Part shown: in pieces, positions 41,822-48,365 of the stretch
Layout of the letters: each line of letters opens with the position of its first letter
How positions within the stretch are numbered: position 1 is the first letter of the stretch
Assembly (NCBI GenBank): GCA_963664395.2
Contig: OY761159.2
Span: 2,272,001 to 2,336,000 of the forward strand
DNA from: Candidatus Binatia bacterium
GTDB taxonomy: Bacteria > Desulfobacterota > Binatia > Bin18
Length of the DNA: 64,000 nt
Reading direction: 5' to 3'
Made by a program: the position numbers and the translations under genes
Notes under the pieces: generated by a model
The model's input: the letters and a program-made list of their open reading frames with translations, nothing else
Databases searched by the model: none
What the model was told of the DNA's origin: nothing

Positions 41822-42994
41822 TTGGTTGAAGTAGGACAGACGACAGCAGAAACGTCTCATATCGAGTTCGGCAATCAGCGTTTTTTACGCGATCTTCTTG
41901 GTCAGCATGATGCGCATCTGCGCGGCCTGGAGAACGCGCTCGGTGTGAAAATCTCAGCCTCGGGCAATGCCCTTATCATCGCCGGGGAGGAGTCACAGCG
42001 CGACTTGGCGGGTCGGGTGGCGACCCAACTGTACGATCTCATCCAACGCGGCTATCCCGTCTATCCGAGTGATGTGGATTACGCGATCCGCATCCTCAGC
42101 CGTGACCATGCTGCCAATCTTCAGGATATTTTTCTCGACACAGTCTACGTATCGTCCAACCACCGGACTATTACGCCCAAGAGTCTCGCTCAGAAAGCCT
42201 ACATCGATGCTATCCGCAACTACGATATCGTATTCGGTATCGGGCCGGCTGGCACCGGGAAAACGTATTTGGCGATGGCGGTGGCGGTTGCTGAACTCAT
42301 GAAACGTAAAGTGAGTCGGGTTGTCCTCACCCGGCCGGCCGTTGAGGCTGGGGAGAAGCTGGGTTTTCTGCCAGGCGATCTGGCCGAAAAAATTAATCCC
42401 TATTTGCGGCCTTTGTATGACGCCCTGCACGATATGGTTGACTTTGGCCGCGCGCAAAAAATGATTGAGCGCGGCGTGATTGAAGTGGCTCCGCTGGCAT
42501 TTATGCGGGGCCGGACGCTCAATGACTCCTTTGTCATATTGGATGAAGCCCAGAATACGACCCGTGAGCAAATGAAAATGTTTCTCACCCGGCTTGGCTA
42601 TGGGTCGAAAGCCGTGATCACCGGCGATATTACCCAAGTCGATCTCCCCACCGGAACCCGCTCAGGATTAAAAGAGGCCCAGCATATTCTGCGCGATATC
42701 GACGGGATCAAATTTGCGCTCTTTACGGAAAAAGATGTAGTCCGCCATCGTCTTGTCCAAGATGTCATTGTCGCCTATGAACGCGCCCAAGAAGCCCAAG
42801 AGCTCCGCAACCAAGAAAGCCGGGAACTCCGCCGCAGCCGTCTTCAGGCCCGGTCTGACCGTAGACATCAGCGGCACAGTCCCGAGCCTGAGTCGGACCG
42901 AGATCCGGCGCTGGAGCCGAATGATCCTGCGTCATCTGAAGCTGAAACAGGCCGAGCTGAGTCTGGCTTTCGTGACGGACCAGACGATCCATGA
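41822..42994 (+). CDS. PhoH family ATPase (YbeZ-like)
   Basis: GPAGTGKT, RPAVEAGEKLGFLPG, MRGRTL, DEAQN, GDITQVDLP; start uncertain. Confidence 0.95.
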   Translation: MVEVGQTTAETSHIEFGNQRFLRDLLGQHDAHLRGLENALGVKISASGNALIIAGEESQRDLAGRVATQLYDLIQRGYPVYPSDVDYAIRILSRDHAANLQDIFLDTVYVSSNHRTITPKSLAQKAYIDAIRNYDIVFGIGPAGTGKTYLAMAVAVAELMKRKVSRVVLTRPAVEAGEKLGFLPGDLAEKINPYLRPLYDALHDMVDFGRAQKMIERGVIEVAPLAFMRGRTLNDSFVILDEAQNTTREQMKMFLTRLGYGSKAVITGDITQVDLPTGTRSGLKEAQHILRDIDGIKFALFTEKDVVRHRLVQDVIVAYERAQEAQELRNQESRELRRSRLQARSDRRHQRHSPEPESDRDPALEPNDPASSEAETGRAESGFRDGPDDP

Positions 42995-43301
42995 GCTGAA
43001 TCGTCAGTATCGGAACAAAGACAAGCCGACTGACGTGTTGTCGTTTCCGCTGGCCGACGAAGTCTGTCCGACTCTTTTGGGAGATGTCGTCATCTCGATT
43101 GACACCGCCCGTCGGCAGGCCCGGCAGCGCAAACGCGCCTTTGCCGACGAACTGCGCGCCTTGCTCATCCATGGTATTCTGCACCTGCTCGGCTACGACC
43201 ACGAAGTGTCGGACAGCGAAGCCGTCCGCATGCGCCGAAAAGAACGTGAGCTGAAGGCCCTGTTGCAGCAATCTGGCGATGTAGGTCGAATCGCGTCCTG
43301 A
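42921..43301 (+). CDS. ybeY: rRNA maturation RNase YbeY (start uncertain)
   Basis: LNRQYRNKDKPTDVLSF, LGDVVIS, HGILHLLGYDH. Confidence 0.93.
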   Translation: MILRHLKLKQAELSLAFVTDQTIHELNRQYRNKDKPTDVLSFPLADEVCPTLLGDVVISIDTARRQARQRKRAFADELRALLIHGILHLLGYDHEVSDSEAVRMRRKERELKALLQQSGDVGRIAS

Positions 43302-43328
43302 TGGACAAAGAACAGGAGACGTTTTTGT

Positions 43329-44201
43329 ATGGGCATCCTGGTAGACATTTTTGACGAAGAGAGGCATCACCTCTCTGAGAAGATTGGGGACAGTCCCCCT
43401 GAAAAGGCTGCACGTATAATCCGAGATTTTTTGGGTAAACTTCCGGCCAAGTATGAGGAAAAAAGTGACCTGACATTGAACGAGAGGCGCCGTCTCGGGT
43501 TTCTCATTGATCTGCTGCAAGAAACCGCCTCCCTCCTTGTTGTTCACACCGCCGAACTCGCACCATCGAGTCATCCGACCCGATATACCTCCGGGCCTCA
43601 AAAGATAGCTCAGCTCGTTCTTTTTGCCCTGCTTGCCGGTGGGTTGGTTGCAATAGGTGCGTTTTCGGCAGTATTGCTCTTGTTGCTGCTGATCATCGCG
43701 ACGTTGCCACTGAAGCTGATCCCTCATCCTGATAAATGGCTTTCGGCTCTTCTGTCGTCTGCGTCTACAGCCGCCTCAGGCCCTTCCTCCCAAGCCGAGA
43801 GGCCGGAAGTACGCGTCAATCCTGGCCCTATGCTCATTGAATTAAGGAAAATCATACAAAAGGCGGAGACATTGCTTGAGGATGAAAAAGACGAGCCAGA
43901 ACCTGAGCCAGCCTACCCCATACATGAAGCAAAAGATTTGCTCCATTTTTTCCAAAACCTTTTGGAAGCTGCACAATTCAAGGATGCGGAGTTTGCCCTG
44001 AAATCGGTACGCAGCCTGAAACGCTTACTACTTGAGCAAAACATACAGATCGAAGACTACAAGGAAGGACAAAACGATTCCCATTTCAGCTTTATGCCGG
44101 GTGGGGGTGAGCGTCGTCAGACGCAGAAGCTCGCACTGGTCAATACGGAAGGACGGGTATTAGTGCGAGGCATTGTGCTTGAGGCTTCGGAAAACAGGTA
44201 G
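43329..44201 (+). CDS. Hypothetical membrane protein with a GrpE-like C-terminal domain
   Basis: AGGAG RBS; central hydrophobic hairpin; ends LLEQNIQIEDY.EG...F.....TQKLALVNTEGRVLVRGIV. Confidence 0.6.
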   Translation: MGILVDIFDEERHHLSEKIGDSPPEKAARIIRDFLGKLPAKYEEKSDLTLNERRRLGFLIDLLQETASLLVVHTAELAPSSHPTRYTSGPQKIAQLVLFALLAGGLVAIGAFSAVLLLLLLIIATLPLKLIPHPDKWLSALLSSASTAASGPSSQAERPEVRVNPGPMLIELRKIIQKAETLLEDEKDEPEPEPAYPIHEAKDLLHFFQNLLEAAQFKDAEFALKSVRSLKRLLLEQNIQIEDYKEGQNDSHFSFMPGGGERRQTQKLALVNTEGRVLVRGIVLEASENR

Positions 44202-44304
44202 CTCCTCGTAACGAGTTCCATACATCTGACACAAAACACTGCCTATCACCTTGGGAAAACTGTCGTCGTAAAAAGGTACATTAGCAAAGGAAGATCTGCG
44301 CATT

Positions 44305-46320
44305 ATGTCTACATATACTCCGATGAAGAAAAATCAGACAATCACGCCTGCTGAAATCATTGGCTTTGACCTTGGCCACGCCGAAACAGCGGCAACTATA
44401 ACAAAGCTGGGCGCTACAACAGAGCCCCAACCCTTGGAAATCCAGGGGAATATGAATCCAATCATAACCGCTGTCGCCGAAGACGGAGAGGGAAATGTAC
44501 GGATCGGAGAAGAAGCGTACCGAAGCAGGAACTCGAAAAGCCTGAAAATCATGTTCAAGAGTCCGAAGCTGGATGACCCTGAAACACGTACGCCTATACA
44601 ACTTTTTGTCCAGAAAATCGTCAATCTATGGTTGGAGGGTAACCACATCGAAGGAGGTAACGATAGTCTGTTTATTGTGGGTTGTCCCTCTGGGTGGAGT
44701 GGTCAAGCACGGAAGATGTATGAAGACCTGTTGCGAGACGCGGGCATGAAACAGGTACGAGTTGAACGTGAATCTCGCGGCGCCTTTCTGGCCGCTAGAA
44801 ACAGCGGAGAGGCTAATCTTAAAGTTTCAGCAGAGACGCTTTCTGGCTCGATTCTCGTTGTGGACATGGGTTCTTCCACGACCGATTTTACACATATAGT
44901 CAACCTGGAGGAGAAGCCTGAAGACTTTGGCAGCAACATCCTTGGGGCCGGCATTATCGACCAAATAATCTTCGAGAAATGGCGCAGTGCTCAGACTGCT
45001 GAAATCACTACAATGCTCAAAGAGGAGCCCTCCCTAGAGGCACGGTGCTTGCTTGAGTGCCGCAAATTGAAAGAATCATTTTTCAATTCTAATATGACGG
45101 ACGATCCCATCTATCAGACTGAGAGAATCTTCGGACCCGAGGGTAGGTCGTTTCTGTTTGAGATGTTGCTGAAGAACAGTGTGGTGGACGAAGTCCTATC
45201 CACGCCGATTGGCGAATTTCTCCAACAACCCAACGTAGAGTTACATAAACTCGGCTGGCAGGATGCCTTTCGGAAGGTATTACAAGACGTGCAGAAGCAA
45301 ACCGCAGACAATCCGCCCCAACTGATCCTGCTGACGGGGGGAGCTTCCAGAATGTCGTTCGTCTTAAGGTGCTGTGAAGAGGTATTCCCTTCGGCAAAAG
45401 TCAAGCGAGGAACGTCGCCGCAGTACACCATCGCCCGGGGGCTTGCCCTAGCAGGTCGGACAGGTAACAAGCTGGAACAGTTTCGTAGTGACATTCAGGA
45501 CATTTTCGCGTCGGATAAACTACGAAAAGTGCTGAGAGAGGAATCTGAAAGGGATGAGGGTTCGCCCCTTGATCACTTGATGGCCGATATTGCTGTTTTT
45601 GTTGTCTATGAGCTGTCGAACAATATCATCCTTCCGACCTTTGTTGAATGGAGGGAGGGGCGCATTTCGACCCTGAATCGTCTGGACAGAGAAATTAAAA
45701 AACGTTCGCGTTCTTTCCTTGAGGGATTAAGCGGGGCCGGCTCGCAAGAATTAGAAGATGAGGTCGTGAAACCTTGGCTTGAAGAATATGTCAGACCGGC
45801 AGTCGAAAGGTTAATCGAGCCAATTTGCAAAAAAGCCGGTATTCCGGTCTCGGAACTTAACCTTTCCCCTGATTTTGTTCCACCGTCTGTCAATGTGGCA
45901 GGACATTCGGACATAAATCCGCTTGAAGATATAGATACACTGGGCACCATGACCGCGGTCATCGGATCAATCATTATTGCCACCCTGCTCGGTGGCGGTG
46001 GAACCGCCCTGTTATTTGCCGGTCCTCTCGGATGGATCATCGGACTCGTCATCGGTGCTGTTGCCACATTCGTGAGCAAAGAGTTTGCAATGGACACAAT
46101 TAAGGATTCCGACGTTCCGACATTTCTCCGTAAAATGATGACCTCCGAAGAAACTGTTCAAGAGAAATTGAAGGAGAACGAAGAGGAACTGCACGGTCAG
46201 ATTTTCGAGGCCCTACAAAAAAAAGCCGACGCTTTTGACGACCTACTTGAAAGCATTGCTAAAGGGACAGAAGCTGACCTGAAGGAAAAGGCAGAGAAAG
46301 CGGAAATGCTGATCAAATAA
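44305..46320 (+). CDS. Divergent Hsp70-family ATPase (NBD only) with a helical C-terminus and membrane hairpin
   Basis: GFDLGHAET, VGCPSGW, RESRGA, VVDMGSSTTD, LGAGIID, LLTGGASRM, IARGLA match the DnaK NBD motifs in order. Confidence 0.85.
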   Translation: MSTYTPMKKNQTITPAEIIGFDLGHAETAATITKLGATTEPQPLEIQGNMNPIITAVAEDGEGNVRIGEEAYRSRNSKSLKIMFKSPKLDDPETRTPIQLFVQKIVNLWLEGNHIEGGNDSLFIVGCPSGWSGQARKMYEDLLRDAGMKQVRVERESRGAFLAARNSGEANLKVSAETLSGSILVVDMGSSTTDFTHIVNLEEKPEDFGSNILGAGIIDQIIFEKWRSAQTAEITTMLKEEPSLEARCLLECRKLKESFFNSNMTDDPIYQTERIFGPEGRSFLFEMLLKNSVVDEVLSTPIGEFLQQPNVELHKLGWQDAFRKVLQDVQKQTADNPPQLILLTGGASRMSFVLRCCEEVFPSAKVKRGTSPQYTIARGLALAGRTGNKLEQFRSDIQDIFASDKLRKVLREESERDEGSPLDHLMADIAVFVVYELSNNIILPTFVEWREGRISTLNRLDREIKKRSRSFLEGLSGAGSQELEDEVVKPWLEEYVRPAVERLIEPICKKAGIPVSELNLSPDFVPPSVNVAGHSDINPLEDIDTLGTMTAVIGSIIIATLLGGGGTALLFAGPLGWIIGLVIGAVATFVSKEFAMDTIKDSDVPTFLRKMMTSEETVQEKLKENEEELHGQIFEALQKKADAFDDLLESIAKGTEADLKEKAEKAEMLIK

Positions 46321-46391
46321 ACAGATTGGAGGAGGGGCATCCATGACTCGCCCCGTCCTGTCTTCGATCATTTCTTCACACTTTGAACTCT

Positions 46392-46643
46392 TTAGAGCAG
46401 CGTGGACAGACTGCGGTATTGTCCACGCTGATTCCCTTCCCAAAACCGATGAGTCCGAACAGGACCATCCCTGTAACGGGTGTCAGGGCCAATCCGAACA
46501 AAAGTATAGTCGATGATATGTCCAAATGAGCCTACCAGCCAGCCCAGCGCAGAACCGAAGCCCACTCCTACCAATTTCCACCTGAACCTCCATTTGATCC
46601 AAACCATTCCTCGGCAGTGTGGACAGTGAATGTTTCTGGCCAT
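46392..46643 (-). CDS. Small hypothetical protein (CPHC knuckle + hydrophobic segment)
   Basis: AAGGAG upstream; MARNIHCPHCRG...LVGVGFGSALGWLVG; may be a remnant. Confidence 0.45.
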   Translation of the reverse strand: MARNIHCPHCRGMVWIKWRFRWKLVGVGFGSALGWLVGSFGHIIDYTFVRIGPDTRYRDGPVRTHRFWEGNQRGQYRSLSTLL

Positions 46644-46772
46644 TCCCCAAGGCTCTCCTTCCTTTATCTCGACCAGTCCGATGAAAGATACCGGCTTCCG
46701 GCTTCTGCTGGAATAATGAGGGGTCGGTGCGGCCTTTCCAGGCTGGGAGAGGCAGGCTAGGCTGCGGTCTGT

Positions 46773-48365
46773 ATGCAGCGCCTGCAGCCCGTTCTGCTAG
46801 CCATTGTGAGTGGTGTTCTGCTCGCTCTGGCCTTCCCGAAAGTCGATTGGAATATTCTGGCCTGGGTCGCCTTTATCCCGCTGCTCTGGGTTACGCAGGG
46901 GCAGACGTTGCGGCGTGCCTTTAGTCTCGGCTGGATTGCCGGTATGGGGTTCTATTTATGTACGCTGTATTGGATCGTGGGTACCATTGGCCTGTACAGC
47001 AATATCCCTCACCTCATTGCTGTTGGTCCGCTGCTGCTCATGTGCGCCATTCTCTCGACCTATACCGGAATCTTTGCTGCTGGACTGTGCCTCTATCAAA
47101 ACAAGAGTCCGCACAACGGGGGTTCGTTTATCTTCTTGTTGGGACCTGCCCTCTGGGTTGCTTTGGAATGGGTGCGCTCTTTCTTTTTTATTGGTTTTCC
47201 CTGGGTCAGTCTGGGCTATTCTCAATATAATTTCTTAAACCTGATTCAGTTTGTTGAATTCACCGGCATGTATGGCCTGTCGGCGCTGGTGATATGTGGC
47301 AATATGGTTCTCTTCAGCGTGCTCTCTCGCCGGGGGTCTGGCCGTGGCCGGGTGCTGCTGGTCTTCCTCCTCATTGTTGCCGGACTCTGGGGCTGGGGGG
47401 GCTGGCGTCGCCATCAATTGGCGGCACTGCCTCAGACGCATACGCTGAACATTGGGATTGCCCAGGGGAATATTGCCCAAAACAAAAAATGGGCCCCTGA
47501 CTACCAGGAGACCACTATCGCGCGCTATGAGCAGTTGACCCGGCAGATAGCGGAACAGAACGTCGATCTGGTCGTCTGGCCGGAGGCGTCAGTGCCATTT
47601 TTCTTTCAATCTGATGTGACCTATCGCGGACGACTGCTTGACCTTGCTCAAGAGACCAGGACGCCTCTCCTGTTTGGGAGTCCGGCCTTTCGAGCCAGGG
47701 GAACGGAACTCAGGCTCTTTAACCGTGTCTATCTCTTATCCCCAGATACCTCCATTCTGGGGCACTATGACAAAATTATTCTTACCCCCTTTGGAGAATA
47801 TATTCCGTTTCAGGACAGCCTGCTTTTTTTTCTGGACAAATTGGTCGAAGGGATTGGAGACTTTGTGCCGGGCACAACGCCGACTATTTTTTCGCTGCCC
47901 TTTGGGACCTTCGGCGTCCTGATTTGCTATGAAGGCGTATTCCCGGACTTAGCGCGTCGCTTTGTTCGGAATGGCGCGACGCTGCTCATAAACGTCACCA
48001 ACGATGCTTGGTTTGGAGAGACCTCAGCCCCGTATCAACATCTGGCAATGGCGGCCATGCGGGCAGTCGAGAATCGTGTGCCCCTGGTGCGATCCGCAAA
48101 TACCGGGATTTCAGCCATTGTGAACATTGATGGCCAGATTCAGGCCCAAACGGACCTTTTGGAGACGACCTTTATCGCCGAATCGCTCGCCTGGCCCCAA
48201 GTAACATCTATCTATACCCAGTATGGTGATTGGTTCGTGGCGTTGTGCGTCGTAGGTGCCCTGGTTATGCTAGGCTACTCATGGGTGACAGCCTATGTGC
48301 CCTCGTCCGCGGGGCGAAACGGAGGAATCGGGAATGCTCGTAGAAATAAAAGAGAAGCTGAATGA
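46773..48365 (+). CDS. lnt: Apolipoprotein N-acyltransferase
   Basis: Multi-TM N-terminus, GFPW, QGNI, WPE, PFGEY, ICYE, TNDAWFG, RSANTGIS. Confidence 0.96.
   Translation: MQRLQPVLLAIVSGVLLALAFPKVDWNILAWVAFIPLLWVTQGQTLRRAFSLGWIAGMGFYLCTLYWIVGTIGLYSNIPHLIAVGPLLLMCAILSTYTGIFAAGLCLYQNKSPHNGGSFIFLLGPALWVALEWVRSFFFIGFPWVSLGYSQYNFLNLIQFVEFTGMYGLSALVICGNMVLFSVLSRRGSGRGRVLLVFLLIVAGLWGWGGWRRHQLAALPQTHTLNIGIAQGNIAQNKKWAPDYQETTIARYEQLTRQIAEQNVDLVVWPEASVPFFFQSDVTYRGRLLDLAQETRTPLLFGSPAFRARGTELRLFNRVYLLSPDTSILGHYDKIILTPFGEYIPFQDSLLFFLDKLVEGIGDFVPGTTPTIFSLPFGTFGVLICYEGVFPDLARRFVRNGATLLINVTNDAWFGETSAPYQHLAMAAMRAVENRVPLVRSANTGISAIVNIDGQIQAQTDLLETTFIAESLAWPQVTSIYTQYGDWFVALCVVGALVMLGYSWVTAYVPSSAGRNGGIGNARRNKREAE

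Follow-up and report, generated by a model that had tools for sequence, protein, structure and literature searches.

Hsp70 proteins and dynamins are well-studied molecular machines that have been seen as separate, the former using ATP for protein folding and the latter using GTP for membrane remodeling. Jilly et al. (2018, PMC5827413) reported that in cyanobacteria one group of bacterial dynamin-like proteins (BDLPs), the "chaperone group", has genes with a DnaK domain downstream. Kaur et al. (2020, PMC7159879) placed Hsp70, GrpE and an Hsp70 without its peptide-binding domain in GAP1-N2 GTPase conflict systems, and a 2026 preprint mentions Hsp70-like NTPase domains in place of STAND NTPases. 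Here we describe a gene pair from Candidatus Binatia bacterium (assembly GCA_963664395.2), found in a 64,000-nucleotide (nt) stretch of contig OY761159.2 (positions 2,272,001 to 2,336,000, forward strand) that we call the window. The pair encodes an ATPase of 671 residues and, upstream of it, a partner protein of 290 residues. It is built from two known kinds of protein; its fused, GTPase-free two-gene form is described in none of the three sources above, and no paper on an Hsp70 nucleotide-binding domain (NBD) fused to a dynamin stalk, or on a membrane-anchored GrpE-like partner, was found in the full-text literature open without subscription (main texts only).

Our preferred reading, to which we give a rough probability of 0.55, is that the two genes encode a self-contained, membrane-anchored ATPase machine with a dynamin-like body and an Hsp70 head, having a role in membrane maintenance. 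The layout of the ATPase beyond its head and, to a moderate degree, its sequence correspond to the part of LeoBC-type bacterial dynamin-like proteins that follows the GTPase. The partner is predicted to be held in the same membrane by a hairpin of its own, with its GrpE-like domain facing the cytoplasm.

The head of the ATPase is an Hsp70-type NBD that looks catalytically competent, as judged from Foldseek comparison of its predicted structure, from a closer hhalign match to DnaK than to MreB and from invariant catalytic residues. Three divergent DnaK-type motifs had been picked out in the first-pass annotation of this DNA (GFDLGHAET, DMGSSTTD and TGGASRM), and all of them were present in this order in the 671-residue translation. 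When the family was aligned by hhalign with the DnaK of this genome, the three fell in register with its motifs for phosphate-1, phosphate-2 and adenosine; the equivalents of K70 and E171 (DnaK numbering) were also in register. An alignment of 54 ATPase-family sequences, used as input to both hhalign and the AlphaFold model, matched this DnaK over 323 columns (probability 96.6%, E 6.7e-10) and the genome's own MreB with a probability of 53% (E 1.3e-4), and the closest kinship in fold or profile was with DnaK and not with MreB, ParM or FtsA. The AlphaFold model (mean predicted local distance difference test (pLDDT) 84.9, predicted template modeling score 0.78) gave at least 500 Foldseek matches at E<=0.001, among them the DnaK NBD 5obu (E 3.5e-14). 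The catalytic residues listed in Table 1 are invariant columns of the 54-sequence alignment, and their DnaK equivalents are D8, K70, E171, D194, T199 and the adenosine-motif GG.

Searches of sequence libraries with the ATPase gave nothing above cut-off. The sole Pfam hint was MreB_Mbl (E 0.0033, below cut-off), PF00012 was absent from the Pfam matches at E<=1, and a genome search with PF00012 also missed the gene; NCBIfam returned only weak YegD/DnaK matches and the PDB sequence search returned DnaK over residues 322-405 (E 0.0077), both under cut-off. A precomputed PF00012 match is carried by some relatives of the ATPase, and a PF06723 match by many. Neither Dynamin_N, MMR_HSR1 or any other GTPase match nor G1-G4 motifs were found in the ATPase by Pfam.

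The hhalign match does not extend past residue 372 of the 595 in DnaK, so nothing in the ATPase matches the substrate-binding domain, and the model contains only helices from residue 372 to 670 (pLDDT 75-90 for those of 592-670), in agreement with the earlier claim that a beta-sandwich domain is missing. The long helical region that had been described was seen in the model, and the hairpin TAVIGSIIIATLLGGGGTALLFAGPLGWIIGLVIGAVATFV and the acidic helical tail in the translation. Across 13 diverse family members the hairpin residues G564, G566, P574 and G576 do not vary, and P605, R609 and L659 are nearly invariant in the 54-sequence alignment. An Hsp70-type NBD with intact catalytic residues, the lack of a substrate-binding domain and a helical stalk followed by a membrane hairpin are therefore well supported.

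Similarity of this C-terminal region to dynamins was found by several comparisons. In the PADLOC library of defense-system profiles, the top match of the window ATPase was LeoBC (E 5e-6, residues 531-666 to profile positions 448-573 of 601), and among 43 aligned family C-termini (alignment A4) LeoBC was matched by 12 (best E 1.7e-8), LeoB by four and LeoA by two. Alignment A4 was then compared with 56 aligned LeoBC-like dynamins (alignment A6), drawn from 150 representatives collected out of 1,172 matches in all; the five dynamins of this set that were checked carry MMR_HSR1 and Dynamin_N. With hhalign the two alignments matched at a probability of 93.1% (E 3.1e-7; residues 392-451 to dynamin columns 347-397), the best of 12 column shuffles of A4 reaching E 0.0057, and under relaxed settings they were colinear over 218 columns, with the family GPxGW motif aligned with NPVGW from a conserved WNPVGW region of the dynamins. 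Moreover, a hidden Markov model (HMM) of A6 run over 6,182 six-frame open reading frames (ORFs) from 80 loci of the family gave five matches at E<1e-3 (best 25.1 bits), all of them C-termini of these ATPases and in colinear register; in a reversed-database control the best match had E 0.014 and 12.4 bits. The region thus has the elements of a dynamin-type paddle, namely a hydrophobic hairpin at 543-589 followed by helices 592-670, a LeoBC profile match and an aligned P-x-G-W motif. Whole-protein Foldseek lists were filled by NBD matches, and the absence of dynamins from them says nothing. A search of the ESM Atlas with residues 388-671 returned only unnamed clusters of 309-337 residues, with scores (0.88-0.90) within the chance range. 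On this sequence evidence the C-terminus is probably homologous to the dynamin stalk and paddle, and an architectural equivalence to them is likelier than homology.

In the partner, the membrane hairpin reported by the first-pass annotation was confirmed as two adjacent hydrophobic helices in the predicted model, and hydrophobic stretches occupy the same columns across 55 partner sequences (alignment A2, which was also used for the model). The model (mean pLDDT 80.8) has a poorly predicted linker after the hairpin; its C-terminal parts are a helix at 165-187, helices at 202-236 and a small beta domain at 239-285. This arrangement of a helical pair, amounting to half of a four-helix bundle, followed by a beta-sheet domain is that of the GrpE C-terminus, and the two best PDB matches of the partner in Foldseek were both GrpE from T. 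thermophilus (E 0.065 and 0.095, probability 0.97 and 0.98). Apart from GrpE, no family covers the whole C-terminal domain in structure comparison. We conclude that the predicted fold of this domain is GrpE-like, as had been suggested. The partner has 45 close homologs; Pfam, NCBIfam and PDB sequence searches with it gave no match above cut-off. When A2 was aligned with 30 true GrpEs (alignment A5) by hhalign, corresponding parts matched over 95 columns with a score of 25.5 (E 0.008, probability 5%), above the reversed (19.2) and shuffled (at most 14.3) controls. A separate idea, that the partner is a paralog of the ATPase stalk, was rejected (hhalign E 0.16).

A complex of the NBD (residues 1-395) with partner residues 156-290 was predicted with a score of 0.37, which ranks as weak support, while the best of three controls scored 0.00; at least 69% of contacts agreed between runs and the partner had a pLDDT of at least 73. 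Among 157 solved complexes 116 passed the same mark, as did two of 215 mismatched pairs, and a score of 0.60 or less was that of only 18 of the 157 solved complexes plus both of the passing mismatches; these counts hold only roughly for our prediction, which used our own alignments.

The architecture of the ATPase and its pairing with the partner are kept well beyond the window. Full-length relatives, mostly of 637-677 residues, form more than 1,251 protein clusters, and in contigs taken from one genome per species 484 of 535 pattern matches encode an ATPase relative. With more than 1,251 clusters and at least 484 confirmed stretches keeping it, the architecture is not due to chance. Locus-level counts refer to the best 80 loci among the confirmed stretches, which come from Binatia, deltaproteobacterial metagenome-assembled genomes (MAGs), Deinococcota, Thiotrichales-type Gammaproteobacteria, Alphaproteobacteria, Clostridia, Actinomycetota, Bacteroidota, Acidobacteriota and Cyanobacteria. 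A partner homolog was detected by a partner HMM upstream and on the same strand in 72 of the 80, across phyla, so that the two genes do co-occur elsewhere. In 62 of these 72 the partner ends between -100 and +300 nt from the called ATPase start, the other 10 being further off or having a poor ORF call, and the distance from the partner stop to the first NBD motif has a median of 55 nt (35 pairs). As for the eight loci without a partner match, three (L033, L066, L071) have less than 170 nt of upstream sequence and one (L020) less than 1 kb; in L017, L018, L065 and L067 upstream room is present and the partner HMM found nothing. No fusion of partner and ATPase was seen among proteins of 686-2000 residues, which is weak evidence, and an apparent fusion in L043 proved to be an over-extended ORF in another frame. 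Around the 80 loci, to a distance of 6 kb, dynamin and GrpE HMMs detected neither a GTPase dynamin nor a canonical GrpE, and the 114 flanking proteins contained no conserved third gene, no J domain and no conserved effector or sensor gene. A membrane-anchored partner with a predicted GrpE-like domain and a tight, conserved gene pairing are, in sum, well supported.

The coordinates of the two genes and of their domains are collected in Table 1.

Table 1. The gene pair and its domains in the window (positions counted from the first nucleotide of the window).
Feature	Position	Strand	Basis or content
Partner gene, 290 residues	43329..44201	+	N-terminal helical bundle, membrane hairpin, linker helix, predicted GrpE-like C-terminal domain
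Three-helix bundle, partner residues 3-74	43335..43550	+	Model
Membrane hairpin leaving both protein ends on one side, partner residues 91-125	43599..43703	+	IAQLVLFALLAGGLVAIGAFSAVLLLLLLIIATL; helices 91-109 and 112-125
Predicted GrpE-like domain (helical pair, then small beta domain), partner residues 194-290	43908..44198	+	pLDDT 90-95 over most of the domain
ATPase gene, 671 residues	44305..46320	+	Hsp70-type NBD, helical stalk, membrane hairpin, C-terminal helices
Hsp70-type NBD, ATPase residues 17-390	44353..45474	+	Foldseek, hhalign, catalytic residues D22, K85, E156, D187, T192/T193, G345-G346
Helical stalk and loop to hairpin, ATPase residues 391-542	45475..45930	+	Helices 372-402, 421-450, 457-474, 479-511; pLDDT 88-93
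Gly-rich hydrophobic hairpin (GGGGTA ... GPLGW), ATPase residues 543-589	45931..46071	+	Sequence
Returning helices and acidic tail, ATPase residues 590-671	46072..46317	+	Ends in conserved (M/L)LI(K/R)

Several observations weigh against our preferred reading. On the side of the stalk, the hairpin was modeled with a pLDDT of 44-48, which makes the model unreliable at residues 543-589, and a reversed A4 control still reached a probability of 64% (E 6.6e-5), so that the dynamin-like signal is partly compositional. The reciprocal search with an A4 HMM at E<=0.01 recovered four of 150 dynamins and three of 150 reversed dynamins and therefore does not discriminate, and hhalign to three single dynamins gave probabilities of 59%, 14% and 26%. 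On the side of the partner, Foldseek found nothing at E<=0.001, the Pfam GrpE family (PF01025) matched none of the 55 partners at E<=0.1 and only the canonical grpE in the genome, and a PDB profile search did not find GrpE; as sequence methods miss GrpE, the claim of a GrpE-like domain rests on predicted structure. The hhalign score of A2 was higher against unrelated dynamins (26.9) than against GrpE, and the partner-GrpE alignment was therefore given no weight on its own. The weak pass of the complex prediction may reflect likeness rather than binding, because DnaK-GrpE complexes have already been solved. Finally, few of the 114 flanking proteins, a minority, are lipid-related, and related genomes do not count as independent cases. 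The dynamin-like stalk and hairpin of the first-pass annotation thus keep moderate backing from PADLOC, hhalign and the dynamin HMM and gained none from the reciprocal search, and its GrpE-like partner stands as a predicted fold with weak complex support and without a signal at the sequence level. That annotation had also set out beforehand what would speak against its proposal, namely a standard substrate-binding domain, a partner lacking a GrpE fold or an interaction, or genes that do not co-occur elsewhere; none of these was what we observed, the support for the interaction being weak.

We infer membrane remodeling and exchange-factor activity for the pair, along the following lines. Binding and hydrolysis of ATP would open and close the lobes of the NBD and thereby move the attached stalk, and the tethered GrpE-like partner would speed the release of ADP and so set the rate of the cycle, which would explain the lack of a J-protein. 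Assembly of stalks with one another on the membrane could bend, tether, fuse or seal the cytoplasmic membrane in the manner of bacterial dynamins, which use GTP. The likely role would be an accessory one in membrane maintenance or repair under envelope stress, with phage stress possibly included. It is possible, and we put it forward only tentatively, that the ATPase is an ATP-powered dynamin, in which an ancestral LeoBC-type protein swapped its GTPase head for an Hsp70 NBD timed by a membrane-tethered GrpE-like exchange factor and not by G-domain dimerization, the ATP cycle driving movement and assembly of the stalk so as to bend, fuse or reseal the cytoplasmic membrane. Such a protein would be the first membrane remodeler of the dynamin style to work without GTP, and no Hsp70-type engine before it would have had membrane work, in place of protein folding, as its output.

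A contextual argument for functional equivalence of the ATPase and dynamins comes from a shared neighbor. The genome's own helix-turn-helix (HTH) dynamin (Dynamin_N E 3.1e-13) adjoins a CDP-alcohol phosphatidyltransferase; this enzyme shares 47% identity (E 5e-109) with the one found directly 3' of the ATPase in a deltaproteobacterial MAG locus (L019). Recurrent lipid or envelope neighbors of the family are Lnt (in Binatia), CDP-alcohol phosphatidyltransferase (L019, L021, L022), PAP2 (L024, L045), UbiA and glycosyltransferases. As an observation in its own right, the HTH-dynamin belongs to a same-strand trio (L146, G000:C1:2076500-2084500) of a 445-residue CDP-alcohol phosphatidyltransferase-like protein, the 755-residue HTH and Dynamin_N protein, whose C-terminus matches LeoBC positions 285-586, and a 285-residue LRAT-family protein. 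Locus L021 (CAMBFS010000076.1) is titled as a Klebsiella pneumoniae MAG and has the gene order and gene sizes of L019 and L022, in which a 678-residue ATPase is followed by a 428-residue CDP-alcohol phosphatidyltransferase and by genes of 309-311 and 343 residues; its Klebsiella label is apparently due to a binning error.

In the window the pair lies between phoH-ybeY and lnt-prfB, all of them housekeeping genes. By reading of the translations, the upstream flank comprises recA, recX, alaS, phoH and ybeY, and the downstream flank lnt, prfB, a PAC2-like gene and rimO; confirmation by Pfam was limited to PhoH and Lnt in the orthologous loci L010-L012. An upstream PhoH occurs in Binatia only. The G+C fraction of positions 44001-46000 is 0.492 as against 0.525-0.572 in neighboring bins (0.542 and 0.525 in the adjacent ones, 0.55-0.57 further out), which fits a separate acquisition of the gene pair relative to the surrounding housekeeping operon. 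A scan of positions 42600-46900 for promoters and terminators gave counts no higher than in shuffled sequence. Short contigs identical at 100% to parts of phoH/ybeY, the partner, the spacer and the ATPase (window positions 42700-45372) occur in four RNA-labeled libraries from two studies, two of the libraries being labeled "sponge metagenome". One contig lies inside the partner (43489-43849), another inside the ATPase (45186-45372), and two more (44057-44298 and 44227-44477) jointly bridge the end of the partner, the spacer and the start of the ATPase. These contigs are only a hint of expression of the pair, because DNA can occur in such libraries, and parts of the stretch that the four runs left uncovered cannot be read as silent.

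Full-length copies were found in five of 24 other genomes of the genus, three of them being orthologs that adjoin lnt and the other two belonging to a clade about 30% identical, with its own upstream partner. A sixth genome (G007) holds a decayed orthologous locus (L007, G007:C1:3666203-3669298), in which a 190-residue partner ORF matches the window partner to about residue 165, a PhdYeFM antitoxin (E 2.4e-14) and PIN-domain toxin (E 3.1e-8) pair is inserted, and an ATPase remnant of 32 residues (311-342, 78% identical) is followed by lnt. The module is accessory, given its patchy presence in the genus and its decay in this genome. The 450-nt gap between the ATPase and lnt in the window contains a minus-strand ORF of 83 residues (46392-46643) with a CPHC motif followed by a hydrophobic stretch; a Pfam search with it gave no match, and a start resembling its own (MARNIQCPHCRGM) is also found in L007.

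The same mechanics could have been selected to seal or disrupt the membrane on infection, as in DynA or LeoABC-type operons, which would make the pair an anti-phage or conflict module. LeoABC-type dynamin operons are listed as candidate defense systems, and LeoBC is the nearest profile in the defense-system library; as the PADLOC LeoBC profile models a dynamin, however, the match of the stalk to it says nothing on defense. The patchy distribution and the lower G+C of the pair would suit such a role, and a few neighbors across the family are of mobile or defense type, namely reverse transcriptase (L014), HsdR (L067), AbiEii (L087), Uma2 (L084), integrases (L070 and a Calothrix plasmid) and Fic (L056). 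Against this, the window pair sits amid housekeeping genes, the 114 flanking proteins are heterogeneous and mostly metabolic or housekeeping with no effector or sensor conserved, and matches were found in none of 50,697 phage records and in one of 72,556 plasmid records (from Calothrix, with both genes annotated "hypothetical"). The survey for defense islands that had been proposed thus returned mostly housekeeping surroundings. In favor of a defense role, membrane binding by DynA is reported as needed for phage defense (PMC12998192). The context gives a defense role little support, and we consider it unlikely and weaker than a role in membrane maintenance or repair.

A membrane-tethered chaperone is quite unlikely. 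Here the NBD would be Hsp70- or Hsp110-like, the helical C-terminus would act as a lid-like client or co-chaperone module for membrane proteins, and the partner would be a GrpE; the GrpE-like fold of the partner agrees with this, as does the naming of some relatives by their sources as "Hsp70 family protein" or "molecular chaperone DnaK". However, a beta-sandwich substrate-binding domain is missing, the C-terminus resembles dynamin stalks in sequence and not Hsp70 lids, and the genome already has a DnaK-DnaJ-GrpE and HscA-like set. Moreover, as the first-pass annotation had noted, no J-domain gene accompanies the pair: PF00226 matches three sites in the genome (C1:193721, 1014458 and 2029856), none of them within 2272001-2336000, and the 114 flanking proteins lack one too. 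It is very unlikely that the ATPase is instead an actin-like filament protein that polymerizes like MreB, FtsA or ParM, with the hairpin as a mere anchor and the partner regulating assembly, since the MreB_Mbl hint and the PF06723 matches of relatives are outweighed by the higher-scoring DnaK profile, a plain anchor needs no stalk of about 280 conserved residues, and a GrpE-like partner suits the nucleotide cycle of an Hsp70-type protein.

The genome has a second Hsp70-like cluster (L148 7525-13086, G000:C1:3950524-3956085), consisting of a DUF2760 protein (231 residues), an Hsp70-like protein (604 residues) and a 1029-residue Hsp70-like protein with a C-terminal DUF3731 "DNA-K related protein" domain; its architecture is unrelated to that of the ATPase and partner.

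This widespread two-gene module appears to join an Hsp70 engine with a dynamin body, together with an exchange factor of its own that is tethered to the membrane. If the reading of the pair as a membrane-anchored ATPase machine is right, it would offer a natural experiment on how nucleotide cycles are coupled to stalk mechanics, would indicate that regulation of the GrpE type can be reused outside chaperoning, and would enlarge the set of bacterial tools for membrane maintenance by a new class, of relevance to envelope stress and perhaps to resistance against phages. Culturable strains of Streptomyces, Nonomuraea, Nostoc, Fischerella and Calothrix carry the module, and the idea is therefore directly testable.

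The closest likeness of the ATPase is to LeoB/LeoC (LeoBC), BDLP, DynA and IniA, with which it shares the succession of an NTPase head, a long helical stalk, a hydrophobic hairpin (the "paddle") and returning helices. To the LeoBC-type dynamins it is further linked by the P-x-G-W motif in the hairpin and by moderate sequence similarity of stalk and paddle, and to the HTH-dynamin of its own genome by a comparable gene position beside an orthologous CDP-alcohol phosphatidyltransferase. Unlike dynamins, which have a P-loop GTPase, its head is an actin-fold ATPase of the Hsp70 type, and it comes with a GrpE-like partner dedicated to it, where dynamins need none; unlike a paired two-dynamin operon, the 80 loci lack a dynamin GTPase nearby.

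With DnaK and GrpE the pair shares the NBD fold and its catalytic residues, a partner C-terminus whose predicted helical pair and beta domain superpose on GrpE, and the adjacency of the two genes, as for grpE and dnaK of this genome. It differs in lacking a substrate-binding domain, a J-protein and a GrpE signal at the Pfam level, and in having membrane hairpins in both proteins. The partner also has an extra N-terminal three-helix bundle, and in place of the long dimerization helix of GrpE only the short helix 165-187 precedes its GrpE-like domain, behind a linker of low confidence. The cyanobacterial BDLP and GAP1-N2 neighborhoods resemble the pair in that an Hsp70-type ATPase is linked there with a machine of the membrane or a GTPase machine; in them, however, GTPase and Hsp70-like protein are encoded separately within larger multi-gene systems, whereas the present module consists of two genes, has no GTPase and carries its Hsp70-type head in one chain with the dynamin-like body.

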